A DNA stretch of 64,000 bases from Chlorokybus atmophyticus (taxonomy: Eukaryota; Plantae; Mesostigma and Chlorokybus algae). The position numbers and the translations under genes were made by a program. The stretch covers positions 1 to 64,000 of the forward strand of contig RHPI01003614.1 in the NCBI GenBank assembly GCA_009103225.1, in the 5' to 3' direction. Of the stretch, positions 1 to 32,091 are shown in pieces. The notes beneath the pieces are model-generated. The model ran no database searches and was not told the origin of the DNA. It saw nothing but the letters and a program-made list of their open reading frames with translations. The stretch's first letter is position 1. Each line of letters opens with the position of its first letter.

Positions 1-532
1 TGGGTGAATAACCACTCATATATAGGACTATGTGTGAGAGCAGATATGCTGTATTATTCAATCACAAATCATATGAATAATCACTCGCCAGTATGGTACA
101 TATGCTGTTGAAACAGCTTTAGTATGTGTGAACATTAAGCCAATATGCGTGTGAATAATTACATATAAGGAGGACATAGTGTGAGAGCAGGCGCTGTAAA
201 TATTCATGCACACAAAGTATGAATAATCACTTGGTGCCATGGTACAAGTCTAGGACCATGTATACCTAAGAAGACTGAATATGCAGTTCTGTCGCGAGTG
301 AATAACTACTCACATGTAGGAGGTTGTGTGCGAGATGGACAACTACAATTATTCATGACCAAAACGTGTGAATATCCATTGCTTGTATTCAGGGCATTTG
401 GCCTGAATAATCAGCAATCGTAACAGCGACCTCTGCAGCCACGCAAGTGGCGAGTTCACACATAAAACAGATGAGTATTCAGGGCAAATGCGCTGAATTT
501 TCAGAAATTCGGGGGGTCCAGAATTACCGGTG
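1..532. mobile_element. Terminal region of a CACTA/EnSpm-like DNA transposon (subterminal GAATA/TATTC-rich repeats, ends ...GAATTACCGGTG)
   Basis: Degenerate repeats of GAATAAY(C/T)AC...ATAGGA...GTGTG. The terminal ~39 bp (494-532) recurs in the same orientation at ~3200-3238 and reads CACCGGTAATTCTG on the minus strand, a CAC terminus typical of the CMC/EnSpm group. Confidence 0.5.
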
Positions 533-578
533 AATGTTTGCATGTCTTATGTGCCTTTGCCATGTGCATAATTGCAGG

Positions 579-2362
579 TCAAAGACAAGTAAAAGGCAAG
601 AGACAGCTCCTCGCTGCACCACTCTACCAGCGACGCCGAGAATGCCACCTCACAGGGTGAGCTACGGTTTGGTAAATGACTATGTTGAGAACGAAACGCT
701 TTGTGTTTGATGGTGCCTTATGTATGCAGGGTGTGAGGTGTGTATGATAGTCCCTTGTGCATGCACGGCGCCCACGCGTTCACCTCCCGCCAGCAACGCC
801 AGCGACGACCGAAATGTCACCTCGCAGCGTGAGCCATGTTTTGCGCGCGCGGGCCGCTGCGGGAGGTACTGTGTATACACTGGTCTGATCGGTGCCTTGT
901 GCGCGCGATAGGTAACAAGGAAGGCACTGCGCCACAACCCACAAGGTCACCCGCTACTGGTTCACAGGTTAGATGTCTGTCATCATTACACGAGCAGCCA
1001 AATGCTTGTACTCTCCTGTACATGTCATCATGACCGTTCATGACTGTTGTGTTCAGGCACCTGCCAAACAGGATGCTGATGTGCGTGATACCAGCTCAGC
1101 TCTCAAGGTATGCAACAACGACTGGAGCAAGTATCTAACAAGCATATCAGTTTTTGCAACCGAAATCGCACCACATGTAGACACAAGACGCCGCGAATGT
1201 CATGGAGCTCACGGAAGAAAAGGAAGGCAGAGGTTAAGGGAAGCGCAAAGTGTCTGGTGATGTACGCACCACTCTGCTTCACAACGAATGGCATAGCATT
1301 ACGTTGTGGCTCACAATCTGATGTGTATGCTGTTGGCAGGAGACTGAGGTGTCAAGCCCCCACAAGAAAGCAAAGACTGTTCGCTCAATTCCGGCTCCCT
1401 ACAAGTCTAAGGAGGCAGGCCCCTCGACTGGCAAGCAGGAGAAGATGTTGGATAAAAAGAGGGGCAAGCAAAAGGAGGTATGAAGGACCATCTATGTGCG
1501 CTTATAGGCTTCTTGGGTCCTTCTGGTTGCAGAAAAACTGTCACTGCAGCAGACTCGCATGCATGCCTATCAATTGTAAGCTTGATAACACGGCGTGCCA
1601 CCTGGTTGCACAGGATGAGCCATCGTATTCAGAAGTATCCGAGACAGAAAAAAGCGAGGACAACGATGAAGATGGCGCCAAGGACGATGCGAACAGCCCC
1701 AACGACAGCGACAACAACTCCCAAAAGGCAGTTTTTTTTACAAGCGCTATATAGGAGAGTGCATCTGTGTATGTGTCTGCCAGTTGATGTGTTTATCACT
1801 TGCATGCACAGGAAGACCTGAGCGACAAGGATGACACTGCACCGACGATGAAGGTTGGTGATGAAGTCAAGTTGTTCATCGATGGGCGCAAGGAGCCAGT
1901 AGGGGAGGCGCACGTAAGCGACATCAAGCCCGTCAACAAGTTTTATGGCAAGAAGATTGGAGAGGGTAACATGGTGGTCCAGTTCAGCCGCAGTCTTCAC
2001 ATCACTAGGACCAGACGTCCTGGTGCAGGGGAAGAAGAGGTTGTGCCTTTGCCAATCAGCTTCAAGCGTGATGGGGTTGGGGTGCAAGTGACCCACTTGA
2101 GAGGTGAACAATGATTGCGTGCTGACTGTGCGTGCGTTATGACAACACACTGCGTCTGACGTATTCACGTGTGGTTAATGCATGTGAAGAGTGCGAGGCG
2201 GGGTTGTTGCTACTTTGGCCTACTAGGTTGATGAAGACCATCAAGGTGAGGGAGCTGCCAGCAAAGGAAGGCACATCCACACCGCGGGGGAGAGGCCGTG
2301 GGAAGGGGAGTCTGGGTGGTCGGGGTGGTCGGGGTGGTCGGGGGCGAAGCAGCAGGAAGTAG
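579..2362 (+). pseudogene. Spliced TnpA/TNP1-like accessory gene of a CACTA-like element (degenerate)
   Basis: Short GT-AG-bounded exons encode charged low-complexity sequence. They are followed by EDLSDKDD..KVGDEVKLFIDGRKEPVGEAHVSDIKP...LLWPTRL, resembling the C-terminal TNP1/En/Spm domain. Frameshift near 2114-2132. Confidence 0.4.
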
Positions 2363-2616
2363 ATATTGCTGCAGGAGATTTCCACCTGCAAGTGCAGCTC
2401 TGGGTAGCAGACATACATTGTAGACAGCATTGAATGTGTTGTTGTAAGTCGGTTGCCATTCAGCTGACATTGCTGGGCTGGCTGGACGGACTGCTGTGAA
2501 TATTATTAGTAGCACTGCATATATCGGTCTTCTTCTACTCAATATCACTTGAACATTCATAGTAACATTGACGGTCGTAAAACAGCAGCTTACCATTGTT
2601 CAACTTCATTGCCATT

Positions 2617-3238
2617 GAATAACTACTCACATGTAGGACTTAGTGTGCAGGCTAGATCACTATGAGTATTCAAACAATACATGCGTGCATATTCAGTGGT
2701 GTAGTACAGTTGCAGCACCACACCATACAGGGTGAATATTCAACTCTACTGCAAGTGAAAGTTTTGGGTGACTGTAAGTGTTCAAACAATCCCTGCGTGC
2801 ATATTCAAGTCTGTTGCAGCTGCCATATGGAATACTACAGGTCTTCAAACGAACCTTGCCTGTGAATGTTCGACGCTTTTGCAAGAGTTTGTCCTGCCTA
2901 ACTACAAGTATTCAAACGATTCCTGCTTGAATATTCAGTGGTGTAATACATGTGATGGTCACAGCACTACACCATACAGGTTGAATGTACAGCTCCACTG
3001 CAAGTGAATAAATGCCCCACATATAGGACTAGTGTGCAATCTACTTGCCACAGGGATATTCACCGACAATTACATTGAACAGGCTTTAACACCTTTCAGA
3101 CCAAACGGTCTGAATATTCACCTCGACATGCAGGAGCCAGGGACGCCGTATTCTAGGCTATTCATCCCTGTTTTTGTTGTCTATTCAGACCAAACAGTCT
3201 GAAACTTCAGGAATCGGGGGGGCTCAGAATTACCGGTG
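2617..3238. repeat. Second copy of the CACTA-like terminal region with subterminal repeats
   Basis: GAATAACTACTCACATGTAGGA is shared with ~301-322. Multiple TATTCAAAC/GAATATTCA units; ends GAATTACCGGTG at 3238. Confidence 0.55.
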
Positions 3239-3487
3239 TGGGAGGAGGTCGTGTTTGTCTGCTGGTACACGAAGCTGGATGGGACGAGCGACACAAAGTG
3301 CATCGCTCTGGAATGGGAAAAGCGTCGAGGGGGTCCACATCTCGATGTCGTGACTCTACAGCAAGTAAAAGGCATTGTCCAGCTGCTCCCCATGTTTAAC
3401 AAGGACAGCACCCGTGTACAAGGGCAAGTATTGGGTGAACGTTCACTGCACTGCCACGTGACACATGTACTTGTACCACCACTCTGA
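3239..3487 (+). pseudogene. C-terminal fragment of a CACTA/Plavaka-like transposase, truncated by the inserted element end
   Basis: WEEVVFVCWYTKL...VVTLQQVKGIVQLLPMF resembles the transposase C-terminal pattern (xxVxW(Y/F)...VxLxPxF). It starts immediately after the 3238 terminus. Confidence 0.4.
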
Positions 3488-3528
3488 TTTTTAAGCATAT
3501 CAGTCAGTTAGGCATTGCTAATCGTATG

Positions 3529-4451
3529 CTAAGACTTTTGCATGTGGATGTGTACAATACCAGGCAGCACACGGCTTGACGTTGTCGAAGAACCATGCAT
3601 GGTCCTTTTACGGACCCCGCGGACCATGCATGATTCGAACCCCGCTGGCCAGGATCGCCTGGTCCGCGGGGGACGGACCGTTTCTGGTCCGTTCGGGGCC
3701 CCGCTGCCCGTGAATGGATGGCGCGGCGACGCGATCACCATTGCATTCGCCATTGCGGGAGGAGCTGCATTTGCTATGGTGACCGCCAAGGTCATCAATG
3801 GCACTCCCAGCGCTGTTTGCCATGCAGCAATGCTGCCCCTGGTGCTTGGAAGGCCTTAGATCGGATACATTTGCTGTGGCGCATTTGTTGTCGCGATTGT
3901 CTTCTTCGCGCTAGCGGACAGGTGCAGCGATAGCAGTCCAACCGCCTTGCCCGCGTGCGAGCAGCGTGCTGTTGGGGTATCTACCATTGGCTATCTCTTA
4001 AACAGACGTTGTCGGAAGGTTGATAGGGCAGACATCGTGCCACAAAGGGAAAGATTGGGTCTAAATGAGGAAGGTGCTCCTGACATTCTCAGTTACACAC
4101 TTGACCTGGCTTGCAAGCAGCAAATCGGACGAGCGATATCATATCCTGGTGTCTCCAGGATGTGCCATGTGCCGCCCGTTGAGGTGCCGGGATAGCACCT
4201 GAATAGGCTTGGCATGGTGGACTGGCCCATATGAGCTCGTACTCGCTCAATTCTCCTGCACTCAGGGTGCATACATTACGGTGTATAAAGGGCAACGGGT
4301 ACTCAGAGGAGGGACTTATGTCCATCCCGGTCACGTCAAGTCCTGCGTGATAAGGACCGACACTGGCACCGCCATTGCCGCAGAACAGATCGAGTGCCCT
4401 TGGTCTGCGTGTGCGTCCAAGCTTGTTGTTAAATGGCGTGTATGTGGTCAA
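3529..4451 (-). pseudogene. Small phage/bacterial-type C5-cytosine DNA methyltransferase (frameshifted)
   Basis: Motif I LDLFCGNGG (4368-4394) and motif IV ASPPCQAYS (catalytic Cys codon 4212-4214). ENV at 4082-4090 in a shifted frame, then GAPSSFRPNLSLCGTMSALSTFRQRLF and WQTALGVPLMT...AAPPAM. Two frameshifts and two in-frame stops (3991, ~3856). Confidence 0.85.
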
Positions 4452-5400
4452 GGTTGGCCGTGGTGCTGGCCATGGACTAACAATGATGCCGTCAGATCTT
4501 ACTTTGCGAATGACATTCTCCCCTCCGGCGCGCAGAACATGGCGTTCCCCGTCAACTGATGTGTATGCGAATACGTTGTGCCTCTTGAAGTTAATGGTTT
4601 ATGGTCGATCACCGTCATCGATTACTATATGGTGCTGCCCCGCAAGCCATTTTCCATTGCACAATGCATATATGATGCGTACTCAATCTCGCACGCCAAA
4701 AAGCGATGCTGAATTGACGCTTGCTTGAATGATTCCACAACGCCCGCATAACATTCCCCATCCAGCAGCTAATGCTCCATGACACTCACACCCATTAGCT
4801 GCTCGCATCCCAGCTTAAGTGCGTTCCGCAGCCAATGCAGTGCGCTGTTGAACGGTCGATGGTCTGCCTCCTCTACAGCGGCCAGGGGGTGGAACTACCC
4901 ACGCCGTGGAAGACTGCTGTGAATGCGACAACAGCTTCAACATGCATGAAATAAGCATACGCCCAACATAATATGCAGTGATACGTCGCTGCCCACTCTG
5001 CCGAATTACCTCCACAGCATCCACCACCTGTCCACTAACCACATGTCCCGGTGTTGTCCATGTGAAGAAGCGCATGGGTTTTCCTCGCCGCTCGAAGCAT
5101 GAGCGCGAGCACGATTCGCACACGCACTGCACGCAATTGAAAAACTCGGGTTCCTTGCACATCACTTTGCCGAGGTGGCAGCCAAACACGTCAACATTGT
5201 GTGTGGTATGATGCCAGCAAGCAGCACTAAAACCGTGGCACACTGTCTGCACTGCACTCGCTGGGATGCGGTCAAGTGCGCTCGAATATACTGCTTACGG
5301 CCATTGGCATATACGTACGCATTGCATTGTGGGCACACCAAGCATGGTCTCCTAGATGAGGGGGATTCAATTGCTGCCACCGATATCATGCAAAATATGA
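4452..5400 (-). pseudogene. Degenerate coding region upstream of the DNMT with Cys-rich and Tudor-like segments
   Basis: Minus-strand frames give VCHGFSAACWH...FFNCVQCVCESC, LMGVSVMEH*LLDGECYAGVVESF and HHIVIDDGDRP*TINF. The last runs in frame into the DNMT ORF. Confidence 0.35.
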
Positions 5401-6325
5401 ATTGGCACGACTGCCCACAAAAAGAGAGACTGAGCTACACTTTAGGGTATGGGCATCAATTTAGGGTTGCCAGCTCACGAACCCTATTTGAGTCACACTT
5501 CAAGTGAAGCACGACTGTACCGAGGACCACATTTCAGTACCATGCATGGTACTACATCAACATGAATTGAACTCCATCCATTAATGGCACTACAGTACAA
5601 GGATACTCGCATACTACCACGATTGTAGAGTAATACTGTGCTGTCATTCCATGGAACCCACAGCGCTGTCTGCGTTTGTTGTTGTCAACCACGCTTCAAA
5701 CCAGCAAGGTATGCAAGCCATGCATTGACTCATGCGCCGGGCAGTTATCGTACACATGTACAGCTAATGCTTCTGACAACAACAAATCTTGGGTGCACCA
5801 TGCACCATGCTGCAACCATACATGTACCTACATGGTTTAAAGGTGTTCAACACAAAACTAAAGTACATGCACAATTGTCATTAAGGCCGGGGCTAAATCA
5901 CCGACGGTATTGCTGGTTGATGCACTACTGGTGGAATGCCGGACGAATGGCCACGCGCTCCTGTGCTAAAATCAAACCTACTTCGTTCGGCACGTGCACG
6001 TGCGCGCGACTTCGCACGCTCACGCACATCCTAGCATGCAAAGGTAGGCATGCATTTGAGGTGCATGCAGTCAATTCACAGCGAGATTGGCAACAACATA
6101 CCGCCGCCCAGCTCTGTCTATCTGCTCTGGCTTTCGTAATGTCGGCTTGACTGTGGGGTGGGTATGGGTGAATAGTGGAGGCCTGCAGCCACGCTACATG
6201 TATCACATAGACTGCGCCCCCCAAACTCACATGATTGCTTGCAAGGAAATGCATGTGACTGCTGAGCGTACCTCTGCATTCCTTTGTGCTTGCTCCCACA
6301 ATCGCAATCGATCCCGCATGGTTTA

Positions 6326-8901
6326 GACAAGGGGCTCCAAGGATTGCTCCTGATCCACTCCTTGTTGCAGAAAGCGAGCCACCAAGCAGCTCTCTGTGTG
6401 AAGATGGTCCTTAATGGCTTGCCTGCTAGTTTGTGCAATGTTGGTGTTGCATATTGAACAGCCCCATTGCTGACGCCTGCCATGATCCATGACGTGGCGC
6501 CTGGTATTTGCAAGCTTCGCTGCTTGAACTCTTACAACCACTATTCTCGCAAGATGTGCCACGCCGCCGCCGCCGCCGCCTCCTCCTCCTCCTAATCGAA
6601 ACCAGGTCCACTATGCCTAACATTCGAGCCGCCATCGACCTGATGCCCCTGCGTGCCATCATCCGGCCATCAATGAAGCTGTTTGGGTGAGTGCACACCA
6701 ACTCCCATCAGGGCTGGTCGAGCAATGCCTATGTCGTATCATGATACGACAGAGCCATTGTACGAAGTGGCTGAGGTTGGACGAGGGATGCCTCTGTCGT
6801 ACCATTAATGTTACGCAAAGCCTTTGTTACCCTTGGTTGTACGAAGCATGGATGGCACGAATGCATAAGTCATACCATCAACCATATGAGAGAAGGACGC
6901 ACCACAAGTGTGATTCTAATGCGGGACACTACACGTTTAAAACCGCCTCATTTTCGTTTTCGCGCCTCGTACATATGAGCCGGCCACCTGGCGGCGGCAG
7001 CGTTGAATGCGCAGCGTTGAAATCAGCCAAGCAGGCGGCACCCGATTATCAGTTAGAGAGATGCCTCGTGGTCCATCTGCAGATGCACCTCATCGTGGAG
7101 GTCGGCGCCCCAAGTCCACATTGCCCCAAGTGTTCAATCAGGCAACCGTCGCCAACCAGCAGCAGCCACTCTTGGCCAACAAATCGCAGCAAGACCCCGC
7201 GCTAACGCCCAGCCCATCACAACAACTCCACCTGATACCGCAATTGCAAGAGCAAGCTAGAATGCATGCATTCGTGATGCACTGTGCACGTTGCTTCTTG
7301 CTCAACTTCATACTTTGATGCTTGCTTCTTTTATGACTAGCACAGCTACTCATTGCATGCGTTGTGGATACACTGCGCACGTTGTTCTTCTTGCTCAATT
7401 GTGAGGGTTGCATCTTTTATGGATGGGAGCATGACTCACGTGGTTGTGCTTGCAGAGGGTCGGTTGGAACCCCCAACCCAAACGCGTTTGGCCGTGACGT
7501 AGCACCTCGGCCGTCAGCAACCCTTCCCCAAGCAAGTGGAAGATTGGCAACGAGGTAAGCATTGTGTGACACTGTCACACTGTGTGCAACGGATTGTTTT
7601 GCTGTGGACAGCATTTGCGAGATGCTGTCGTTAAAATCATAAACGGCCACTAGGTAGACAGCCACGTTTATCCCAACGAGGACACTATTCGTAACGTCAC
7701 ATGTTAGGTGCTGTGAGTGCTTCATGACCTCACGGCACCTTGACACTAACCAACCTGCCTGTGACAGGTAGTTGGCTTCAACCATGACGACGAGGCCGAT
7801 GCAGCCAAGTTCTATGAGGTGTACTGGACGCCCAAGAAGTGCCCCTTCAACTGGAGTGTCGCCTTTAAGAAAGCTACGTCGGTCTGAGAACGTCACCAAG
7901 ATTAAGCATGTCCTTGAGAGGGAGTACAAGTGGACACTCTTTAACAGCAACAAGCGCAAGCGAGTTGGGTCCCCCACCACCATGTCTGCTATGCAACACT
8001 GCCTTCTCACTCAGCCTCCATGCACACGTACGCATCTCGCCTATTGTAACCGATTCAATCAGGCACATCGACACCCTAATGGACCCAAAGACCCCAAAAG
8101 CCCAGATGCGCAACGCGCTCCAAAGTAAGTCACAGGCACTATTCTAGCCTAGTGCAGGCTTAACTTGAACTATCTATATCGTGACTAATGCCTTATTTGT
8201 ATGACTCTCACAGACAAGTCATGGCGGAAATTTAAGGTGACCGACAATGCAGACCTGGAGCGGAGGAGATACATCCAGGAATGGGGCAATCCCATAGTCT
8301 GGCAAACGATCGTGCAATGCTGGTCTTACGACGTCACTACACCTGGTCGCCGGCAGCTAACAGTCAACCACCTCGCATATCTGTTGCTTACGGTGAGCAC
8401 TCTAAACTCATTCACTAGCAATTCAGGAATGCTGTAGCCCCAAACTACAGCCTTGCAAACGCGCTGCAGTGAATAGAGGCTTTCAATGCCACTCAAACAT
8501 GCCTGTAAACTGCGCAGGTGGAGCGCATCCTAAAGAGCAAGGATGGAGACCCTCTCCTAGCTGCCTTCATCGACACACATGAAGAGTACCTCAGCGAAAT
8601 CAACACCATGATCATGTTAATGAAGCGGGAGATGAGGCAACGGTACGCAGCCCTCCAGCCATTCACCCTTGTGAAACGCCGCACTGCATCTTGTGTCGAA
8701 TACCTGAAAGATCCCAATTGGCGCCTGCCGCAAAAAACAGCAGCTCGTGACGCGCTCGTTGAGGCAGAAGCGGCATTTGGTTGGCTGGCGCAACCGTTTG
8801 AGGAGGAGGAAGAGCAAGCTTCGGCGTCTCCTCTACAGGCCCCAGCGCGTGGTGCTTTGTTCCATGATGACGTGCAAGGCGATAATGGAGAGGAGCTATA
8901 G
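6326..8901 (+). pseudogene. Degenerate spliced gene of unknown function, probably transposon cargo or accessory
   Basis: Exon-like blocks with GT-AG borders (e.g. ~8212-8392, 8518-8901 ERILKSKDGDPLLAAFIDTHEEYL...). Internal stops upstream; no recognisable domain. Confidence 0.3.
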
Positions 8902-9313
8902 CGCAGTTGGTAGTCTGTTTAGCTGGTAGTGTACACAGCTGCAAGGCTCTTGTAACTTAGTGTTGTGAATTTTGAACCAGCTCAGTCAATCGTCATTATG
9001 CTCATGCATGTAAAAATTTGCATCGCTATGATATACAACAGAACGGCAGGCATTCGAGTCACATAATCGAACTACAAGCCTTGGCAAGTGACTGAGAGAC
9101 ACTGTACACATTTCAGGTTCCTGTTCACAGCACAGGCACATAGTGATGCTGGCAGTCGGTGACAGTCGCGTGTAGCCATACTATGCAAATACATATAACG
9201 ACAGTTAGGCATTGGTCACCTTCAGTTGCTTGAAGAATGCCTTATCTTGTCGATAATGACCTAGTTGGTGCTTGTGAATTAGGCTTCGCTGCGCTGGACT
9301 AGTGTGTAACCTG

Positions 9314-9575
9314 CAGGTGCCGGTCACATAGGCTGAGTCACCTAAGTAAGACTGATGTGTAATTTGCAGGTGCCTATTACTTAGGTATAGTCACCTGTTA
9401 AAGCCTGATGTGCAACTTACAGGTGCCCATTAATTGGTTATAGTCACTTGTTACAGCCTGATAAGTAACCGACAGGTGCATGTTAATTAAGCATAGTCAC
9501 CTGTTAAGGCCTAATAAGAAACTAACAGGTGCCTGTTAATTATGCTTAGTCACTGTTAAAGACTGAATTGTAACG
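9314..9575. repeat. Tandem array of five ~53-bp units (subterminal repeat of a DNA transposon)
   Basis: CAGGTG recurs at 9314, 9367, 9420, 9473 and 9526 (period 53). Consensus ~CAGGTGCCTRTTAATTARGYATAGTCACCTGTTAAAGCCTGAT. Confidence 0.85.
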
Positions 9576-9730
9576 GAAAGGGCCTGATAGTAACGGAAGT
9601 TATTCTCAGGTCCATGTATCGAGATTACAGGTGGACTGAGCCACAACAGTCTAAATAAGTATTCTCAGGTGCACGGCCGTTGCCAATATTTCGTCGGCCG
9701 GCAGGGGAAACATTATGCGACGTATGCTTA

Positions 9731-10190
9731 GCCTACTTTGATTTGCTTGCTAGGCACGTTCTGCCTTTTGGAACAGCCTGATTGCATGGTGGACTATGAC
9801 TTATACCCTATGCATTGGATGCATATGGTACAAGTCATAATCTATATAATCAAAGTGAAACATAGAAAAAATGCGGTGATTGCCTCTGCACAAGCATCGT
9901 TGTATGCTTCAGGTTGGTTGCTCCGTTAACGTATACTATCTGCCTCACCATTCCATTGCACAGCACATAAGAGCACTAAGTGTAGTGTGAGGTGGTGGCC
10001 CCGGGTGTAATTGATTGTCCATGTGTGCTTTGCCTATTTTGATTTGCTTGCTATGCACGTTCTGCCCTTCGGCACAGCTCGTCTGCATGGTTGACTATGA
10101 CTTATACCCTATGCATTGGATGCATATGGTACAAGTCGTAATTCATATTGATCAGATTTACGCATTGAAACATGCAGTGATTGCGCCATA
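9731..10190 (+). repeat. Two ~150-bp diverged direct repeats (offset ~301)
   Basis: GACTATGACTTATACCCTATGCATTGGATGCATATGGTACAAGTC is identical in both copies. Confidence 0.75.
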
Positions 10191-11355
10191 CCATGCGCAT
10201 AACATGCTTGGACACGTGTGTCACAATGCCATGCTAGTCATAGTCCAACAACAGCAGCATGCTAACATACAAGGCAACGGCAAGCAAGCAACTGGCCCAA
10301 ACCCTTTGCAAGCCCTACCTCTATTGCCAGCTAACGCACCTGCAGGGTGGTACAAAACGCCTGCCACACATGCAGAGTTATGCACACACGTGCACATGCT
10401 CAGATTTGCACTAATGGCGGATGCCAGGCAGACATGAGTGGGCATAGGCAGACAGCTGAAAGTACGCGAGGGGTCTATGTGCGCTAGGTGCACTATGTGC
10501 AAATATGCCTATGTAGCGCGAGGCAGTTGGCACCAACAGGCAGGGATTGAATGACAAAGTTGTACACACAAGCGTATCATGGATTCATATACACATGGTA
10601 TGGTCAGGTTCGTTGATCGACCACCACAACAGCGACAGACATGGAGCAAGGAGGGCAGGTGGGGAGATGAGAGCGGGGTGAGAGTGCTATGCTGTGCTGC
10701 GCAAACACTATCACCGCCATCACCTTCAAAATACATCGTGTGCTCTGCCTGCTTGTATGCTAGGTCCCAATCTTATTGTACGCATTAGCCAGCAAAAGGC
10801 ATTGGTACCTTCAGTGTTACCCAAGCGTCCATGCCCAATACACCGACCACATCTACACCAACTACACCAAAATAGTTGAGGACGTCAAGTGAGATTCAAC
10901 GCATGGCAGCGTCATCGAGTGTTGTAAATAAGCGGTAGTTGCGTCATAATGTTGCCTTCAGCCCAGAGACAAACCAATGCGCAAGTGCAGCTAGATCATG
11001 CTGCATTGAACTTCCGGACTGATGCACACAAATATTTAGAGTTGAGATTATGTCACAAGGTAATCTTGAGATAAGATTGTGTACGCCACAATGGGCCCCA
11101 CCTCTAGCTCAAGAGGTTCACAACTACCACGACCTGCTGCATTGCAAATTTCGTACCCAAACATTGTGTATCAGCTCGGACCCCTGATATAACGACCCCT
11201 GATAACACTGTAGAGCCAACACATATTACCTTTGTACTGTGTGACCAAGCAACAGAAATAGCCCTCTGATTTATTGCATGCCCACATGACATACTGTATT
11301 AGTGCGCACGTACTCCCCGTCTTAGTCTGGTGGCTGTAACACCACAAACTGCATC

Positions 11356-14300
11356 TCACAGTGTATACATCGGGTGCACTGAAGTTGGTGTCTGCTGCAC
11401 ATAACCGCAGTAACAAGCAGACAGCATCCAGCGGATGTTATTTACAGCCAGCAGCTCAAGGTACCTGGGCATGGGATGAAAAACACACAATGAGAATGCA
11501 TTGCACATATTGTAACAGGAACAACAGATGACTGTGCTCGAGGCAAAGCAACAAAAGCAACAACTCACCCCTGGAGTTGGCATGGAAAGCTGGTGGTATG
11601 GACTTGCTATGTGAGCGCTTGTGGGCGGGCCTGCTGGGGGAGCAGTAATGCTATACGGGTCATAGAGTGCTTGGTGTGCTCCATGGGAACCCGCATGGTC
11701 ACCTTCGTGACCGTTAGCATGCGACGCCAAACCCCACGGGTCCTTCTCATAATTGACTATGGAAGGAGGAGGCTTGTAGCTGTTGGTGCGTATGACGGGA
11801 TGAACAACTACATTCTCAACTGGGTCAACACGCAATCTTTGGGGAGCGCGGTTCGCATAATCCTCCATGTCATCAGCGATGCTGCCGTGATCCCGCTTGC
11901 TGCCCACATCAGCAATCTCGGCACTCACGCTACGAGGCGTGACATACCCGCTGCCACTTGAAGCAGAAGCACTCGATGGCGCGTGCAGGGGCCAGTGCGG
12001 GACGTGTGCATGTACATGTGGCATCTCCATGTAGGGCTGAGGCATAAAGTGCATAACAGGCTGCGCATATACAGGGTGGTGGTAGGTGCTGGTAGGGTGG
12101 GAACTGTGCATGTACATCTCAAACTGGTCCGGTCGGGGGCTGTACGGTGTGGCGTAACCAAGGGGCATGGAATGCACGTGCTCCGGTATGTGCAGTGAAG
12201 GCTCTGGAAGAAAGTGCGGTGGAGCATACCGAGCATAATCTTTTGGCCTTTGCGGGCGTGCTTCGCCACCAAAGTGGAAGCTGTTACCTGTCACAGCACA
12301 AACACCATGCTGAATGCATGAAGCACGAGTACACCGTGGCACAATGTTTTGTAACATAACAACATGCTTCATTCAGGACTTGCAAGAAACAAGTAACGCT
12401 TATGGCAGTCACAATAAAGACTGTAGCCAATCAACTCACCATGACTGAGTCGTGCGCTCTGCTTGCGTTCAAAATACTTGGCTCTAGATTGGCCCGGTCT
12501 AAGGAACTCAGACTCGGGCAGCTCGTCAAGAATCTTCTCCAGAGCTGCCGCAGCCGCCTCCTGCTTGGCCTTTGCTTTGGCTCGGCCTCGTCCCACACCC
12601 GATACAGTTGGAGTCTCGCTGCCGGGCGTGCAGATGGACGCGGTCACCTCGAAGGGTCCCATCTGAGACTCTGCGAGCGTATTGTACTGCACTTCCAGGT
12701 GATGCTTGGCGGCGTGCTCGTGCAGGAGCGACAGCGGGGTCTTGTTGGCCAGCTTTGGGTCTTGGTGCAGGCGGGACAGCAGCGCAGCCACGCGCCTGAA
12801 TTTGCTGGCCCACGCCTGTGCATCACTGGCCTGGGCTTCAGCTTCTGTCTTCAACTTGGCATCCGCAGCCGGATTGGGACTAGGGCTGGGGCTAGGGCAA
12901 CTCTCTGCTTTCATCTTTCTGTGAGGCGCAGGTGCAGGGCTAGGCAAGGAGTTGCTCTCAACCGCATTTCCCACGGTGTTTTCGGGCTGGATGCTCGAGT
13001 TGGACCGTATCAAGCTGAGCATGTGGCTCATACTCGACTCCGGTTCCGGCTTTAGCGGCTCCTGCCTGGCAGGACGTCTCAACAAAGGTGGCGCGTGCAT
13101 CAAAGGCACCGGTGCGCTATGCGTGTGCATGAGGTATGGCGGCCGCAACACCGGCGAGTCCACATAGTCAAGATACTCATGGTAGTACCCACCATAGAAA
13201 TTGTATTCGTCCTGCACGTAGTATGTTGGCGTCCTGCAAGCAAATCCAACACTGTGTTGTTATATTGTTCCTCAAGATACGAGTCCATGCATGACTCAAC
13301 ATGCTCCCAAAACCAAGAAACGCTGTTTGTGGTCACTAACCGCTCAGTACCAGCCGATGGTGGGCCCCACCTAGGTTGACTCTCTTTTTTCTCGTCTGGT
13401 CTGTTACGCATGGGTTTGGCAAGCGTAGCTTTAAGGCGCAGCAGCTTACCACCTTCGCTGATTTCCAGTCCATTCATGCTGTCAATGGCTTTGAGAGCGC
13501 TCTCACGCTCGGTGTAGTTAACAAATGCAAACTCTTTCCTCTTGGCTGAAGCGAGGTTTTTGGCCATCACAACTCGTTCCAAGTGGCCAAACTTGCCAAA
13601 CACCTCGCGCACCCTTTCTTCCGACCAACTTGTTGGCAAGCAGTCCACAAACACAGACTTGACTTGTGCCATCACATCCTCATCAGGCTCGTTGAGAGGC
13701 TGCGCCCATGCTACCTTCACCACCTGATCGCCCAGCTTAAACTCTGCTTTCTCCAGCTTTCGCAAAGCCTGATCATACACAGTTATGACTATGGTAAACG
13801 ACTCAGGATCGGCACCATGTCTACCACAATCAGGTAGATAGGTTTCTGTTAGTGTTGTTGTGCCGCTTCAGGCACAACAACACTGAGAGCAGGCTCTCAG
13901 TGTTGTGCCATCCACAAGCCCATATGCAACCTGACCCCAAGAAGTTCAGAAAACAACATGGCTAATGACTTGGCAGGTTGTTACCGACAGCATTGTGAAC
14001 TAAGTTCAGTGAACTTAGTTCACAATGCCTAGTGTCACGCGACACCTTACAGGGAGTTAGCGGTGAGTACACACCCACACTGTACCATGCAAGCACTCCA
14101 TTCATAACACTGAATGCGCCTTGTGAAGACAAGACGCTCTGTCTAACCTGAGTGGCGTGCTTGCGCGTCTCAAACTCCACAAAACAGAAACCCCTATTGC
14201 GGCCGAGGTTGGCAGGATCCTCCATCATGATGATGTCAACCAAGCCTTCCATTTCGTTAAGATACGTCTTCACAGTCTCGCGGTCCCAATCCTTCTTTAA

Positions 14301-15690: not shown

Positions 15691-18179
15691 GCCCGCCGCC
15701 GCCGCTGGCACTGCGGCAGCCGCGGCAGCAGCCAAACGCTGGACGCCAATTGCTGGTACCAGACGCGATATCTACAAGTTAAGCGCTACATCGCTAGTTC
15801 AGGTCAATAGATTATGATATCTAGTGTCCATCAACGAAAGTATGTTGAGAATATTAGGCATCACCTGAGGTCATTAACTGCTGTGTGTCGGGTACCATTG
15901 CAGCGTACTGTGTTTGACAATGCCCGACACATGCGTGGCTCGGGCGGAGCCCATCATGCCATGTTTCTGTGGTGCGCTTGAGTTGCGCTGACAGTACTAA
16001 ACCATGGCCTAGTACTAATGAGCCTACTGCTGTAATTGCACTCGACCTTACGACACCCTCCCAATAGCGATGAAGTGTTGAATGACCGTTTTGCATTAGG
16101 TTAATTTAGTCATTCATAATGACTGTCACACTCCATGTAAGAACAATCGGTGCCAATAGGGAGCGTCAGTATAGCGAGGGCAAGTATGAAACTGATTGTT
16201 TAGGGCTTCGATACCTCGCTATAGCGACCAGTTGTTATGACCTGGAGTTGTAAGCACATCTGGATCCGTAGTAACCACCATTGCCATTGCATAGAGATGT
16301 TCGACTCTAAATCAATGTAGTAGTCATGTTTCGTAAGTAAAACCCTCGTTACATTGATAAATTGTCATTACGTAGCATTGACGCTTTATAACAATGATTA
16401 ATTACTGCATCTGAAGAACGACATTTTCGTGTCATAAGAAAATGATTATACACATTCGTGGTCATTATATCAAAAGTAGACTGTGACTCGTTGCAAATCC
16501 AAATGAGTCACCATTTGTTCACCGTTTCTCATAGGGACACAACCTGTTCCTTCAGTTATTAATCAATAATTTTAATAAAGTTCAAAGTTTTGAACCTTTA
16601 CGAATACGATAGACTTAAACTGCCATTAATGCAACTTAACCGCGCTGCTGTAACATGGCATAGGGTAAAACACAATGATTGAATTTTCTTCACTTTTGTC
16701 TTCTCCAATACTTGCGCATCTTTATGTAGCATATAGCAATATCGTGTTAATCTTGAATCTGAAATGGAAGTGTTCCAACCCAGCAGAATTAAAGCGGTAG
16801 TGGTTAAATATAACAACTCGATGCTTTACTCGGGTAGTAGGCTCTTAGAAAGAGGCCCACCCGAAACTCTCATCCCTACAGTGGCCTCAAGGAGCCAATG
16901 TAGGGTACAATGTAGGGTAGTGTAATAATTTTACAAGGTGACCCATACTATGCTATCCTTACCATTGGGTGTCTTAAGTATATGTACTCTCCTCTTTGTT
17001 TTTGTAACTGGCTTTGCACAATGGGTTTAACATGCACACCTGAGATGATCAAAACAATTTGCATTGTCAGTCAACCCGAGTGGATAAAGCCACTGGAAAC
17101 AACATTGCCGCTGAAAATGTTGATGCGAGCCAAGCCTGTTGTGTATCCATAATATGCATGGTGCAATGTCATTGAACGGCAACAACTATAAGCAAGACAC
17201 AATGGGGGGCCGCCCGCTGAATCAAGGCCAAGTGCCGAGGGACACTAGCACTGTTTCGAAGCATTGGTACCATGGATGTGTACAAAGTACATGATATGCG
17301 CGAGACAGCTGGAGACATGCATGATGCCAAACAATAGCGTACCAACCAGTGTTGGTACGCTATTGTTTGGCATCATGGAAGCATATGAGGTGTCATAAGG
17401 GGGCTACAGGTAAGCAGGCAAAGAAGAGGGTAATAGATACAGATGCTTGTCAGCAGCATGTAGATCAAAAAGCCATTATATACCATCATACACATTCCGT
17501 TGCGTTCTTGGTACATGCAGTGCGTGAGTAGTGCATGTTGCCATGGCATGCACTGCTGACAGTACCACATACGAGCGCGACAAGCACTGCTTGTTGCGAC
17601 ATCAGTGCATGATGCACTGCTGATGTCAGCAGTGCATTGCTGAAGATTACAATGGCAGACTATCAATGACATCAACAAGCAGAGAGGAGGGGCGAGGGAT
17701 GCGGGATTGCGGGAGGAGGGAGAGTCCGTCCGCCGTTGATGCTGCCGACTGCCTAGCGCTGCCGACCGCGACCAACTAGTTGCACGTTGCGCAAGTAATT
17801 GTATGTATCTGTACAATGTGCCGTATGTATGCTCATGCACAGAAACATGCAAGCATCCCCGCCCTCCGCCATGTCTAACCAGCCTGCGCTTGCTGCTGCT
17901 GCTACGCTCTATCCCTTGTCTTGCCCTTCACCTGCCAAGCCTTCGTTCTTATCCGTACTGCCTGTTGCACAGGTCCGCTTGCTCTTGTACCCTTGAACAT
18001 GCTTGCCCCTGCCCTGCTCTGCTGCCCTCGCCCCCACCCCCCGCTCACACCAAGCACATAGCTAGAGCACATAGCTACCTTGTTGCTTGGCCGTGTTCTA
18101 ATTGAAGTGCCCATGCTGGTGTGACTGCTGGTGTGACTGCTAATTGCTTGGGTGCGCCTTGCTGTGCTTGGCACGTTGT

Positions 18180-18799: not shown

Positions 18800-20090
18800 A
18801 ATGTTTCCCGATTGCTAGTTCGGCTGCAGCTGTGACAACCGTAAGCATCCGTCCTTAGCAATCAACCAATACTGTGGCATTGTTCAGCTGTAGTAGTTGA
18901 AGACATGAATGCCCATCATACAAATCAGCACGGCCTGATTGGGTAGCAACCAAACAACCTGCTTAAGCATGTAACCCCTACACTACAACACACTCGCCTA
19001 GCGCATGTACTGTACATCCTGATAATCCTTCAACATACACACACGCATGGCGTTTGGTAGATTGCAATCGGTGTTCAATACCACTCGCACAGCCATCGAC
19101 AAACGGTGGCATCTGCAGCTCCAAACTTATGACTTTACTACGCAGTACACGCAGATACCATATCTGTGACAGCATGAGGACTTGCTGCTCCGCATGAGGC
19201 GTTTGGTGGATGCCACGTTCGCCATGCAGTGGAAGCTACAGCGCGCTACCCACTTACACCTGAGTGTTCAACCAGATGCTTCTGTGCGACATCACTGGAG
19301 CGCTGGCGCGCAGTACACCTCCGATGACGACAGCAACTGGCGCACAATCACCGTGCAGTCGCTGAGTGACATGCTGCAGTACTTGCTACGCAACTTGTAC
19401 ATCAGGACCAGCAGTGACGAACTGTACAGGCAGCAAGTGGGAATCCCAATGGGCAATAATGCTGGCGTGCACTTGGCTAATGGCTACTTATTGACTTATG
19501 AGCTGAACTTCATGCAACGGCTGCGCATGCAGGGCCACGGACACTTGGTGGGGCAGTACGCTCGCAACGTCCTACATTACATTGATGATTTGTTTGTGGT
19601 GGCCATTCCTAACTTTGAGCGACTGATGTATGTGGATCCAACCGTGCCCGGAGGTGGACTCTATCCGCGGGACATCCTCACGGTGTCGCGCACAGCGATG
19701 GGTGAAGCACTCCCCTTTTTGGACTTGTCCATATTCCAAACCGCTGATGGCATTTGTACTGAACTGTACAGCAAAAAGGAGCTGCCAGCCTTCCGCGGTA
19801 TTCCACGTCACAGAGCATCGCTGCCAGCCTCCAACATACCAAACAGCGTACAGCTTGGTGTGGTCGAGTCGCAGTACACACGGTTTGTACGCCTGTGTAC
19901 GTACATGACGCACTTCATCACAGCCATGGCGGACTTACTACACGCCATGCACGCCGACGGCCATTCGCTGAAAAAGCCATTGGCGATGCTGCGACAAAGA
20001 ATGTCAAAGACAGATGCATATGTCTACTGCACAGCACCAATGCTGCTCTACATGATGGTGGTCACGTACTTGCAGCAGCACTACCGGTGA
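18800..20090 (+). mobile_element. Penelope-like retroelement reverse transcriptase (5'-degenerate, no C-terminal endonuclease)
   Basis: QTYDFTTQYTQIP upstream of a stop near 19170. ORF 19182-20090 has QQVGIPMGNNAGVHLANGYL, YIDDL, PFLDL, LYSK and SNIP..GVVESQYTRFVRLC, which are PLE-type RT and thumb motifs. Confidence 0.8.
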
Positions 20091-20127
20091 TGAGCGACCC
20101 ATGCACTGCATGGGTCGCTCATCACCG
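20085..20127. other. Perfect hairpin with 21-bp arms and a 1-nt loop overlapping the RT stop codon
   Basis: CGGTGATGAGCGACCCATGCA-C-TGCATGGGTCGCTCATCACCG. Confidence 0.95.
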
Positions 20128-20158
20128 ATATGGGGAGCAGGCTGTTGGTAACACAGCG

Positions 20159-27269: not shown

Positions 27270-30200
27270 ATGTTGGCTGCCAGGTGTAGGGGGTTGGTCC
27301 CTCGGGCGGCCGTCTCGGCCAGGGCGGCGGTGGGGGCGGCGACGGGATGGAACACAGGCGTGGAGAGCACCTCCTACGCACCGTGGCAGCACCATCGGAG
27401 CAGGCGGGGCGTCACCGACCTCGCCGTCCTGGACGACGACCTGCACGCCCTTCCAGCTGAACTGCGCTCAGCCGATCTCAGAGTTACCTTAACAAACCAA
27501 CCCCAGGTTTGCCTCTTTTGCTCACACATTGGTTTCTAAGTTGCTCTGTCAATTTGGGTTCAACTGGATCTGTTGAGATTGTGTGGAATTGAAGTGATCA
27601 TTTTGTCTCAGCCCAAGCCGCGGTTGGAGGATTTGAAATTTGGCAAGTACTTCACTGACCACATGATGGTGGCGGACTGGGTGGAGGGGTCAGGCTGGGG
27701 AAGACCTGAGATTCATCAACTCAAGCCATTGGAGCTTCATCCTGCCTGCCAGGTGAGGGCAATGCCATCCTTGACATGATGTAGCGCGTGCGTGTGTAGG
27801 GGACGAAGTCANGTTGCTCCTATCTGTAAGCGATAATACGACAACAACAACAACAACAACAGGCAGCAAGCAAGCAGAGCGATGGTGAAGGAGCGACCGA
27901 AGCTGGTGCTGATCATACTGAGGGCGGGCACGCGCGATCAACCGATGAAGTTCTCAACACTGTGCATTCACAGGTGTGCAATTCACCAGACACACTTGTT
28001 ATTCAGCCGCTTGCAGACGCTGACTTACATGTTGAAATGCAACCACAGTTTGAGGAGTGGGACTTGCGCAAAAAGGGCTACAGGCATCTCATGGCTTTCA
28101 TGCTGTTCACGGCACTCTACTTCATTGTGCTGTTCATGCAAAGGTAAGCATACTGTTGTCCACAAAAAGCAAGAAAGGATTATCATCACAACATACTGGG
28201 TTTCTCATTACAGGGATGCCTCGATGGTTTATGGCGTCAACAGCACAATATCAACACTGCTTCCGAGCGATGACAGCGGCAACACCCTGACAGAGTTTCA
28301 AGACACGGACAGCGTACTCTCCTGGTACGAACATCGTTCTGTCTTGCTGACAAATAACATCATCATCATCATCAACAACATCATCAGCAACATCAACAAC
28401 ATGTGTTCACAGGGTGAGGAGCATGCTGGCGGGCACGTTTACAAATCCAGTGTGTGGAGGTGGCGTGTGCGAGCGCCCATACGAGTTCAACGGCTACGGT
28501 CGCTTTGGTTGTCCAGAGGCAAGTTGGTTCACAAACATGTTGTTGTATTACAGGTGATTGAGTTGGTCATGTGGTCTGCTCAGGACTGTGGCTGGTCGAA
28601 ATATCTTACTAATGTGACTGTGAAGTTCGGCTTCAACTTTCGTACCGCCTCCGACCAGTCACGCTCCTTCTGGAACCTGTGGTAAGCCATCAAGAACCTG
28701 CGTGCGTGTGCACGTGCGCGCGTGCCCCCAACACACACACACTTACATACACACACGTGCACAGATACAAACATTTTCACACAACGCAGGTGCTGCATTA
28801 TGGCACGGAGTGCTTTGAAGGCATGAAGATATATCACGGCGCAGACATGCGGCTGCGGCTTTTTCGGCCCGACATGAACCTGCAGAGGCTGTCAACATCT
28901 GCTGCGCGCTTGCGCTTACCCGAATTTGATCAGGTAGTTGAAGTAGTAGCAGTAACAAACAAACACACATGCATACGCACACATTTGCCGTACGCTCACA
29001 TATATATACATGCACAAAACACGCGCACTTGCGCGGTTGTTTGTGCTTGCTGATGAGAGTGCTGTCTCCCCAAACAGGCAGAGCTGCTGGAGTGTTTGAA
29101 GCAGCTTGTGCGGGTGGACGCTTCATGGGTGCCGGACCGCGAGGGCTACGCCGTGTATGTGAGGCCGACGCTGGTGGGCACGACGCCGTGTCTCGGGGTC
29201 GCACCGCCCTCCCACGCAAAACTCTTCATCATTCTCTCACCTGTCGGACCCTACTTTGCCAATGGTGGCCTCAACCCCGTGAAGCTGTTCCTGGACGAGC
29301 GCAATGCTCGTGCGTGGCCCGGTGGCGCAGGTACTACTGTCTGTGTGCATGCGCGTGTGTGCCTGTGCCCGTGCGCGTGTGTGTGCGCGTTTGTCTGTTT
29401 GTGCGCGTGTGTCTGTGTGCGCACGTGTGTGATAGTGTTGCTATGATGTGTTGACATGGCACATGCATTCAGGGTATGCCAAGATTGGCGGCAACTATGC
29501 ACCGACAGTGCAGCCGCAGGTCAATGCTGCCCAGTACGGCTGCAGTCAAGTGATATATGTGCTTCAAACTCCAAGTACATGACACTCTCAAGCATCTGTT
29601 GCAGAAGCTTATGCCAGTTGCTAGCTTGTCTCAAGTGTTTCATCCATTCATGCAGATGGCGGATTCATCTCTGAGTCCGGTGCAATGAATCTGTTCTTCT
29701 TCCTGAAGTACGCCGACGGCTCACGTGAGCTCGTCACGCCCCCGCTTGACGGCACAATTTTACCTGGCGTGACACGTGATTCGGTGCTCGAACTCGCACG
29801 CTCGTGGGGCGAGTTCAACGTGTCGGAACGGCCGCTCTCCCTTGATGAAGTAAGCACCTGACATGTTGTTGTGCTTGTGTCTGAAGCCCGAACAAAGAGT
29901 AGTGTCCATATACTAATGGATTGTACTGCAGCTTCTGGGTGCAATATCGGAGAACCGTCTGCTGGAGGCGTTTGGGACAGGAACCGCCTGTGTGGTGCAG
30001 CCGCTTAGCGGGGTTGCGCGGTTGAATGAAAACGGTAGCGTTGCGCAAATGACGGTCCCATTCCAAGCTGAGGCTGCACAATGGTGGCTCAAGCAGGTGA
30101 GAGGATTGAGGGCACATGCGTTTGGAATTGAGTGACATGTTGTTGGGTGAGGTCAGAATGCTTACACATCATTGCTTGGGCAGATTGGTCGCGGCAACGA

Positions 30201-30312
30201 TAATCAAACAGCAAAGCTCGCCCCGGGTGAGTCGTTGAGTGGGCGGCTGATGCGTGCTTTGATGGACATTCAGTATGGCATCACTCCGCACCCGTGGAGT
30301 GTGCCACTATGA
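27270..30312 (+). CDS. BCAT: Branched-chain amino acid aminotransferase (PLP class IV) with N-terminal transit-peptide-like extension
   Basis: Exons 27270-27506, 27612-27752, 28790-28933, 29078-29330, 29473-29574, 29656-29849, 29932-30096 and 30184-30312 splice in frame. Motifs: FGKYFTDHM, LHYGTECFEGMK, LFRPDMN, YVRP, KIGGNYAP, ESGAMN, ILPGVTRDS, FGTGTACVV, DIQYG. Confidence 0.93.
27813..28725 (+). repeat. Apparently identical 913-bp copy of 33052-33964 lying inside BCAT intron 2
   Basis: Constant offset of 5239 and identical ORF translations. Begins immediately after an N at 27812. Confidence 0.9.
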
Positions 30313-31057
30313 TGGCCATCTTCATGCATAGAATTTTCATTGCCTTGTACATTAGTGGCGAGCTATTTGCGATGTATATAGATGCGATTGTGTGCGACAA
30401 CTAGCTGCACACCATGTGTGCAGCTTGCGAGGTTGCTTCATATGAACGGAAGGCTACATTGGCTAGCATTGCATTGGTAGGCGCTTGCCTATGCTATACC
30501 AATGTGCAGATATGATTGTTTTTCAAATGCGTCCACCCTACAGCTTGCCTATGTTGTCACTAGTGATTAACAACGACCATTTTAGCTTGCATTCTGCAAG
30601 AGTACACAACCAAGTGTTGTGGAATGCAATTGCAGGCCACATGCTCCTTGCTGCAATCTGTTCGTTGTGGCACTACTTGTATAGGTGAGGTGCCGCTACT
30701 TGCTACCTCTTGCTGCCTTTCCTTGCTAGTTTGGCGTGCTGATGTGTCTTGGGGCCTGAGGCCGAGGCACTCAACACAGTGCCGCTTTTGCCATGGATGT
30801 GATCAACCACAAAACTGCAATTAGAGACCACTCCAATCGACAACGCCTACCATTGCCATTGCTAGCCTAATGCGGTGATGTTGGTTGTAGGTGTATTGTG
30901 TTTATGTAAGTCACTTCCAGAGTCGTGCTACATCCTTGCAATTGCACAATGCGGCTCACATCATTATCCGCAGGCATGCATTCATTGCAATCAAGACCAC
31001 CGATTGATGGCAATTAATTGAAGACTTGGACATGTGCATTAAAATAAAACAACACGA

Positions 31058-31801
31058 TACCCATAATCTATTGAGTCTTATTCACATTAAACTTGTACAA
31101 CGTCAAGTTGTGAAACACGTTTGAGAAGCGCTCCTCTGCGTAGGCTCCACATATTTCATGATGCATTTGTAACATCCAATGAAAAGTGTACAAAAATTTG
31201 ATGATTACATTAAGCCTGCGCATCTAAGCGTTGCATGCGTCGATATGTACACGTATGCACGCGCACGTATCCATAACGCGCTTCTGCGTATATAGTAACA
31301 TTGCAAGCTTCAATATCAAGCATCGTGTTGTGAAAGACAATCGCAAGTAAGGGTGCGTATATTACAATCGCATGCTGCAATGGACTTGAGTGTAAATGTA
31401 TTGTAAGAGCGGACGATAGGGCTCCGGGACGGGGGGGGTACCCATAATCTATTGAGTCTTATTCACATTAAACTTGTACAACGTCAAGTTGTGAAACACG
31501 TTTGAGAAGCGCTCCTCTGCGTAGGCTCCACATATTTCATGATGCATTTGTAACATCCAATGAAAAGTGTACAAAAATTTGATGATTACATTAAGCCTGC
31601 GCATCTAAGCGTTGCATGCGTCGATATGTACACGTATGCACGCGCACGTATCCATAACGCGCTTCTGCGTATATAGTAACATTGCAAGCTTCAATATCAA
31701 GCATCGTGTTGTGAAAGACAATCGCAAGTAAGGGTGCGTATATTACAATCGCATGCTGCAATGGACTTGAGTGTAAATGTATTGTAAGAGCGGACGATAG
31801 G
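31058..31801 (+). repeat. Apparently identical 363-bp tandem duplication with a G-rich spacer, ending at an N
   Basis: 31058-31420 matches 31439-31801; N at 31802. Confidence 0.9.
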
Positions 31802-32091
31802 NCACTCGCATTGTGTGGCTTATTATCCAAGCTTATTGTGAAGCGCTTCATGCAAGAGTCAAACGAGGGTGTAAATACCACAGTAACCACAAAGGTAATG
31901 CAGCAAAACTATACTCTTACATAGGCATCTGATGACATCATTGGGGTGTGCGCGCGGACTCGGGTCGACCGATCCCGTTCCAGTCACATGCCACACCTGC
32001 GACATGTCCCACCTGAAACAACCCAACCGCACTTGCCGTGGCCCACGCCCACGCCCACACCGCCGCCGCCGCCGTGTTGCTGACAGGGGAG

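Follow-up and report, generated by a model that had tools for sequence, protein, structure and literature searches.

A decayed C5-cytosine methyltransferase gene in a likely CACTA-type element of Chlorokybus atmophyticus and its likely origin from giant viruses

The locus described here raises the question why a transposon should carry a writer of 5-methylcytosine (5mC). C5 methylases were known as cargo of retrotransposons, whose freshly made cDNA is unmarked. For a cut-and-paste element this reason falls away, and, therefore, a methylase on a DNA transposon would offer a direct test of this question. The window, i.e., the whole stretch of DNA that was analyzed, comprises 64,000 nucleotides of Chlorokybus atmophyticus (contig RHPI01003614.1, positions 1 to 64,000). 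An earlier note, made from the letters alone, had placed a compact phage/actinobacterial-type C5-methyltransferase (MTase) gene with two frameshifts at 3529..4451, inside a CACTA-like transposon and antisense between a transposase-like fragment and a subterminal repeat array. The features are compiled in Table 1.

Three-frame translation of the minus strand (3300-4750) revealed that all motifs named in the earlier note are present. LDLFCG starts at about 4391 and ASPPCQ at 4223, ENV follows at 4090 in a second frame, and GAP, LCGTM, RQRLF, ALGVPLMT and APPA all lie in the third frame. The C5-MTase motifs I (FxGxG), IV (with the catalytic PC), VI (ENV), and VIII (RxR) are, thus, intact and in order, but spread across the frameshifts. 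Both frameshifts are real losses of two bases, and the compact C5-MTase that had been recovered by joining them was confirmed. Tblastn with proteins of the family aligned their N-terminal half to 4418-4125 and their C-terminal half to 4086-3754. The lesion list had been incomplete, as in-frame stops at 3991-3993 and 3856-3858 are present in addition to the two frameshifts. Of 648 candidates from a homologue search with the N-terminal piece, 448 reached E<=0.001, with a best E of 1.8e-19; the 120 that were listed had identities of 41-60%, were mostly 211-300 aa long, and mostly carried PF00145. The N-terminal ORF alone matched PF00145 at E 0.03, which is under the Pfam cut-off. The MTase in the window is a real gene, and this copy of it is dead, i.e., a pseudogene.

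Table 1. Features of the methylase-carrying element and its surroundings in the window
Feature	Position	Strand	Remarks
Other CACTA-type element, right end (...ACCGGTG)	3227..3238	.	inserted in the transposase gene; same end at 521-532
Transposase of probable CMCT type (EnSpm/Plavaka), C-terminal tail	3239..3475	+	convergent with the MTase; broken off at 3238 by another element
Foreign 179-bp piece	3569..3747	.	stands in place of the last helix and the 3' end of the gene in the window copy
C5-MTase, C-terminal half	3748..4080	-	LCGTM, motif VIII (RQRLF), variable region of 44 residues lacking an MBD, APPA resembling motif X
C5-MTase, middle piece with motif VI (ENV)	4085..4120	-	flanked by the two frameshifts (near 4124 and near 4082, loss of 2 bases each)
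C5-MTase, N-terminal half	4125..4418	-	motif I (DLFCG), catalytic motif IV (SPPCQ), clade-specific insert behind motif IV
Linker plus two Tudor-like halves (~4790-4714, 4639-4599)	4419..4790	-	in frame; around an inferred GT-AG intron (4713-4640)
Decayed upstream exons	4800..6610	-	Cys/His-rich, C2H2-finger-like stretches, by eye
Second spliced gene of the element	7448..8901	+	inside the high-depth unit; possible TnpA-like accessory protein
53-bp subterminal tandem array	9297..9581	.	CAGGTG/CACCTG in both orientations
Likely right end of the element	9660..9707	.	candidates ...CAGGTG at 9671 or ...GCAGGGG at 9707

Part of the region was found in three of the six public runs listed (X1, X2, and X3, two studies), of which X2 and X3 represent one sample; in run X4 no contig aligned on 1-12000. 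Contig depth was determined over 1-12000 in 400-bp bins. Depth is not equal to copy number, and it was, therefore, used solely as a sign of one repeated unit. Over 3201-9200 it was 147-366 in X1, 85-179 in X2, and 4.6-11.4 in X3. To the left of this unit (1-3200) it was 17-48 in X1 and 8-37 in X2, and over 10001-12000 it was 0-2 in both of these runs (0-0.3 in X1 past 10000); in X3 it was 0-2 outside the unit. The shape was the same in all three runs, with a step up at about 3236 and high values until about 9700, and, hence, the region from 3236 to about 9700 behaves as one high-depth repeat. The repeat holds the MTase, the transposase-like tail, and the 53-bp array, in agreement with the earlier placement of the MTase inside a transposon-like unit.

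A 2521-nt contig of X3 covers 3236-3568 and 3748-4999, i.e., the transposase-like tail, the MTase, and the Tudor-like part treated below. It runs further left in other sequence, and the listed letters are in frame with the tail at 3239-3475. Because the contig continues leftwards in frame, the element must have been longer on this side, and a different element has interrupted it at 3238. These results bear on the idea that the MTase belongs to an endogenous giant virus or to a host gene family and merely lies near transposon pieces. Although the nearest kin of the MTase include a giant-virus bin as well as intronless, closely packed genes, the Pfam scan of 48 + 64 + 10 window ORFs did not reveal any viral hallmark gene, the depth is even over about 6.4 kb up to the subterminal array, one contig joins MTase and transposase-like tail, and the adjoining single-copy host sequence is without cover. 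This explanation is, thus, very improbable, and the methylase can be regarded with high confidence as cargo of a multi-copy mobile element.

The runs also revealed how the commoner copies differ from the window copy. The majority version has two extra bases at each of the MTase frameshifts (near 4082 and near 4124), a sense codon stands in place of the stop at 3856, and the frameshifts near 3420 (X1 and X3) and near 4643 are absent from it. Among the differences between window and majority, 40 of 104 were listed. Eighteen of the listed differences are in the MTase, and 8 of these are synonymous, an excess over the neutral share of 0.27 that is not significant (p 0.085). The 10 listed amino-acid differences were read in the majority direction: six lead to the commonest residue of the family, one does so mildly, one leads slightly away from it, and two are uninformative. 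The changes from the window to X1 were A>G 121 and T>C 122 versus G>A 64 and C>T 71, showing that the window copy has gained A/T. This gain is what an aged copy would show in a genome depleted in CG (CG observed/expected 0.57-0.89 in the region). Judged from these letters, the MTase of the commoner copies appears to be undamaged and devoid of most of the window lesions.

The 3' end of the gene differs between copies in another way. The MTase homology ends at 3748 and not at 3529, because 179 unrelated bases follow in the window, and the apparent gene end at 3529 is an artefact of this foreign piece. The extent given before, 3529..4451, had, therefore, to be replaced, as the homology of the gene covers 4418-3748 only. 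Other copies in the public runs carry 177 other letters at the joint from 3568 to 3748, with loose ends at 3568, 3592, 3703, and 3748, and the majority version past 3748 translates as the canonical last helix of the MTase family. One X1 contig matched the swapped version exactly over 203 bases and, thus, both 3' versions are present in run X1. The inserted piece itself is a GC-rich, palindromic small repeat that was found also in other contexts in the runs, and the exchange was nearly equal in length (179 for 177).

Next to be considered is the class of the carrier. The resemblance of the tail to the C-terminus of EnSpm/Plavaka transposases was seen by eye. In the Atlas the tail was at 0.95 to fungal hypothetical clusters, with a low recognition value (1495), and its nearest named families were DUF6830 (0.85) and DUF4216 (0.78), both presumably linked to Plavaka/CACTA transposases. 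It had no Pfam match, and a homologue search gave 8 candidates, none of them at E<=10. Subterminal repeats in which a short motif recurs in either orientation are a feature of EnSpm/CACTA elements, and such repeats are present in the element; the 53-bp array was detected over 9303-9566. The motif CAGGTG/CACCTG occurs 9 times in 383 bp (9290-9672), compared with 80 times in the 64 kb of the window, for which 61 are expected from shuffles. Two positions were considered for the right end. The end at 9671 fits the CAC..GTG rule that is given for EnSpm termini in the available part of PMC12730594, and the end at 9707 fits an X3 terminal contig that ends near 9699, as deduced from depth and distance to the end. 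A 163-bp direct repeat (9722-9883 and 10023-10184, 84%) lies just past the likely right end and may belong to the element end or to the flank.

Only the right part of the element is in the window, while its left end and the transposase core lie to the left of it, and the TIR pair and the target duplication fall outside as well. The order would be left end, transposase (+), MTase (-), second gene (+), 53-bp array, and right end; the second gene had no relevant Pfam match. Of the arrangement proposed earlier, the array was verified, and the transposase-like fragment stands less firmly. Tandem arrays occur in several transposon kinds, and the carrier could be of another kind (Helitron-like, KDZ, Sola, or another cargo carrier), in which case the CACTA label would be wrong. 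The tail without a family match and the ambiguity of the right end, with a GC-rich palindrome between 9671 and 9707, would agree with this, as would the fact that methylase cargo crosses the superfamilies of algal DNA transposons in the available parts of two sources (bioRxiv 2025.02.11.637652, PMC12477816). The fungal Atlas neighbours of the tail and its nearest named families, DUF6830 and DUF4216, speak against it, and the array motif equals the candidate CAC...GTG terminus for EnSpm (PMC12730594, as far as available). Another kind of carrier is, therefore, improbable, and a CMCT-type (EnSpm/CACTA) element is the likely carrier as judged from its letters.

On the left, window 1-3238 is occupied by another CACTA-type element. 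Its two right ends, at 532 and 3238, resemble each other, and it lies within the transposase of the methylase-carrying element. It contains a spliced basic/acidic gene at about 1040-2360, which may encode a TnpA-like protein.

The MTase gene is probably longer than had been noted, because its frame is open upstream to 4598; a stop follows at 4599-4601 in the window copy. The splice sites of the intron at 4713-4640 are damaged in the window. The majority letters at 4714/4713 and 4641, compared by hand, create a GT donor and a CAG acceptor, and splicing at these sites would bring both Tudor-like halves into the frame of the MTase. In addition, majority letters turn the stop at 4771 and nearby codons into W-P-x-x-x-x-W. 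The joined upstream text matches what we take to be the pattern of PDS5/MSH6-type Tudor domains. The halves are decayed and 33-34 residues long each, and they had no match in Pfam or the PDB; a search for the motif as text found no paper in the literature searched. By its motif, which was seen by eye, a Tudor-like domain appears to be joined to the MTase by way of an intron. A TET/JBP identity of the ORF upstream of the MTase had been considered from an H...R pattern and was rejected, as there was no Pfam match and the majority letters fit a Tudor-like domain better. Further upstream, the decayed exons with finger-like stretches had no Pfam match either and may belong to the MTase gene.

A search of 1.84 billion representatives was used to find the closest relatives of the MTase. 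The best matches after two tandem-domain proteins were P0123-P0126, which form a group with further matches, and many members of the group have an MBD inserted in the variable (specificity) region. The group profile matched MBD2 at E 2e-9 and DNMT1 chains in the PDB at E of about 0.9. A Klebsormidium nitens protein, GAQ92615.1, is in a 90% cluster of this group. The clade is made up of a giant-virus bin, metagenomic proteins, and a Klebsormidium protein, and the viral context is known for 1 of about 30 members. The member of a sister group in the giant-virus bin G001 matched with 42% over the length (E 4e-85); the bin has a strong VLTF3 and a weak capsid match under the cut-off, and an A32 ATPase was not found in it.

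The window MTase is 34-43% identical to 23 clade members and near outgroups. It shares the insert after motif IV with 29 of the 389 proteins that were fetched, all of which are in MBD or giant-virus-like groups; the pattern was written after seeing them. In its strict form it matched 0 of 353 loci, and it missed the giant-virus member, which has a variant insert. The variable region has 44 residues in the window versus 77-146 in the clade, and, thus, there is no MBD in the window copy. In P0123, P0126, P0269-P0277, P0168, P0386, and GAQ92615.1 the MBD was observed at the target-recognition region, and possibly the MBD-insert methylases would be read-and-write enzymes.

The earlier note had suggested a phylogeny with eukaryotic DNMTs; the trees left out host DNMTs, and in these the window MTase groups with the MBD/giant-virus clade (support 90-93). 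In the 64-row tree it is with the MBD/giant-virus groups (SH-aLRT 93) on a long branch. In the 45-row tree (20 dropped, 1 added) its 25-row set, which includes four other proteins, had a support of 91/90, and the sets holding the window MTase were unstarred. In the 31-row tree it is in a 14-row set with a support of 93. Forcing the window MTase together with four actinobacterial enzymes gave a p-AU of 0.051, which is borderline and not a rejection. A direct actinophage origin is disfavoured by the trees and the common motif-IV insert, with the AU result being borderline.

The structure predicted for a relative, P0126 (pLDDT 73), has a C5-MTase fold. Its top matches in the PDB were DNMT3 and DNMT1 (E 5e-6 upward, 11-18% identity). 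Among viral proteins, the C5 methylase of Pithovirus LCPAC201 (46% identity, E 3.8e-14) was by a wide margin the best match. Tailed phages and bacteria frequently carry members of the wider family; P0386 matches 324 GenBank phage records, and the Atlas neighbours of the MTase are mostly tailed-phage clusters. In IMG/VR, the search for the MBD-insert subgroup yielded general family members only, the DNA pattern had 0 matches, and the HIT-like protein that neighbours the MBD-insert gene was found in 0 of 32 candidates. In the JGI metagenomes at least 80 of 499 loci were kept, none with the strict insert, and in GTDB 80 of 267 were kept, with general family members and no MBD-insert subgroup among the matches listed.

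Sequence comparisons, with trees devoid of host DNMTs, support the view that the closest kin of the MTase are not host DNMTs and that it belongs to a compact prokaryote/virus-type family. The earlier assignment to a phage/actinobacterial type, thus, holds with respect to the compact, non-host family, and the nearest kin are instead in a giant-virus/Klebsormidium clade. Since these, and not actinophages, are the nearest kin, a giant virus is the more likely donor. A giant-virus route of the methylase is, on balance, probable, and the likely path leads from a phage or bacterium to a giant virus and on to the algal transposon.

The best explanation for the locus is a decayed MTase in a likely CACTA-type element, with an enzyme that likely came from giant viruses and would methylate copies of the element; we consider this explanation fairly probable as a whole. 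The transposon would have gained the C5-MTase from giant viruses, and an intron together with a Tudor-like chromatin reader at the N-terminus would have adapted the cargo to a eukaryote, the reader standing in place of the MBD insert of the closest relatives. The reader could bring the enzyme to the chromatin of element copies, and de novo 5mC might tune the expression of the transposase or the binding to the subterminal repeats, or might mimic host marks.

The main rival explanation is that the transposon took up endogenous giant-virus DNA in the way in which Pack-CACTA elements capture parts of genes, the methylase having no role for the element. The window copy is indeed a pseudogene, and the synonymous excess given above is not significant. 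Giant-virus inserts with DNMT genes have been reported in eukaryotes, and Klebsormidium has such inserts, according to the available parts of PMC11244446 and PMC12344493. However, the majority version is without both frameshifts and one stop and fits conserved residues, and the apparent intron and the in-frame N-terminal domain are hard to explain without expression. In addition, the GC3 of the MTase (about 0.53) matches the overall GC of the window (about 0.5). Passive cargo is, therefore, unlikely, though less so than the other rivals. A retained accessory enzyme that would methylate element DNA in chromatin is favoured in analogy to the proposals for retrotransposon DNMTs (PMC5890265) and for the algal ParB-methylase cargo (PMC12477816). 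That the enzyme would be active and serve the element is given slightly less than an even chance. The furthest-reaching version, a young high-copy CACTA-type family encoding an intact giant-virus-derived C5-MTase/Tudor chimaera that writes 5mC on its own copies, is put forward tentatively, as possible rather than probable.

The element was compared with known systems as they are described in the available parts of the cited sources. C5 methylases are carried by the algal retrotransposons KnitGypsy-Dnmt3, SymbioDIRS-Dnmt3, and SymbioLINE-Dnmt, for which self-methylation was proposed and CG activity was shown (PMC5890265). The likeness is a C5 cytosine methyltransferase on an algal transposable element. 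The retrotransposon DNMTs are in the elements' own ORFs, mostly derived from Dnmt3, and of eukaryotic origin (PMC5890265). In contrast, the window element has a separate, antisense, apparently spliced, compact gene of virus/prokaryote type and is probably a DNA transposon.

The earlier note had known eukaryotic DNMTs on transposable elements from retrotransposons; however, methylase-carrying DNA transposons are described, i.e., Mariner-1_OLpv, PAG2, and Sola1-1_Ec32. The red-algal Plavaka PAG2 (bioRxiv 10.1101/2025.02.11.637652) and Sola1-1_Ec32 of Ectocarpus (PMC12477816) have an accessory prokaryotic-type methylase fused to another domain. The carrier of PAG2 belongs to the EnSpm superfamily, and the ParB-methylase gene of Sola1-1_Ec32 is opposite to the transposase strand, like the window MTase. 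Their enzymes are putative N6-adenine or N4-cytosine methylases with SET or ParB, whereas that of the window is a C5-cytosine enzyme, i.e., of the type that sets the same mark as the host uses. Mariner-1_OLpv is a DNA transposon that encodes a C5 cytosine methylase, like the window element, but it resides in a virus genome, is a Mariner, and has a 344-aa methylase together with a restriction endonuclease; the available part of PMC3627910 mentions neither an intron nor a chromatin reader. The fungal TET/JBP-carrying EnSpm, Plavaka, KDZ, and Helitron elements are DNA transposons of the CMCT clade, the probable class of the window element, and likewise have a cargo enzyme that acts on cytosine marks, but their cargo is an eraser or modifier of 5mC and that of the window a writer (PMC12730594, available part).

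Among enzymes, mycobacteriophage PattyP gp85 and its kin and the bacterial compact C5-MTases have the same compact layout and motifs as the window MTase. The MBD-insert clade (GAQ92615.1, bin G001, and Pithovirus LCPAC201) has the layout, the motifs, and the motif-IV insert in common with it. The window MTase differs from this clade in its short variable region without an MBD and in the upstream in-frame extension with the inferred intron.

That transposons carry DNA-modifying cargo is already known, and the likely addition is a C5 methylase in a probable CACTA-type DNA transposon. The literature searched, which extended neither to subscription papers nor to Repbase and supplements, described no nuclear CACTA-type element with a C5 methylase and no MBD-insert methylase. 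If the explanation is true, a cut-and-paste element carries the writer of the mark that silences it, and a route is given by which viral DNMTs can become new eukaryotic DNMT families. Orphan or viral DNMTs do occur in eukaryote genomes, according to the available parts of PMC12344493 and PMC11244446. With its core of phage type, its place in a giant-virus clade of which some members have MBD inserts, and its apparent intron and reader, the gene resembles a transitional stage on the way to 'orphan' eukaryotic DNMTs. The MTase can be cloned and assayed, because its family appears to be multi-copy, its majority version is apparently intact, and its catalytic domain comprises only about 240 residues.

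A second, unrelated C5 methylase was observed in the remainder of the window. A decayed Gypsy element at 49400-54400 (-) carries it between the protease and the reverse transcriptase; behind the integrase there is a PHD finger. This Gypsy element (49.4-54.4 kb) resembles KnitGypsy-Dnmt3 as described in the available part of PMC5890265. Two element classes in this genome have gained C5 methylases independently.

The window further contains spliced genes with RRM, dsRBD, and C2 domains as well as LTR elements, which mark the DNA as eukaryotic, and there were 0 matches to Rfam. The spliced genes and the KnitGypsy-Dnmt3-like element would fit a green alga, probably a streptophyte. An open frame of 306 residues at 19170-20130 (+) has reverse-transcriptase-like motifs and is Penelope-like by eye, without a Pfam match. 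A near-perfect palindrome at 20082-20130 follows it, and another one is located at 17320-17377. An inverted pair of paralogous spliced genes at 27800-46300 is 70-75% identical and polycystin-channel-like by eye. The exact duplications 27813-28725/33052-33964 and 31058-31801 lie beside N gaps and may be assembly artefacts. In the last region, 56000-63400, fragments of Copia type lie together with a frame for Gypsy gag/protease, and 62255-63410 is taken up by a large inverted repeat.
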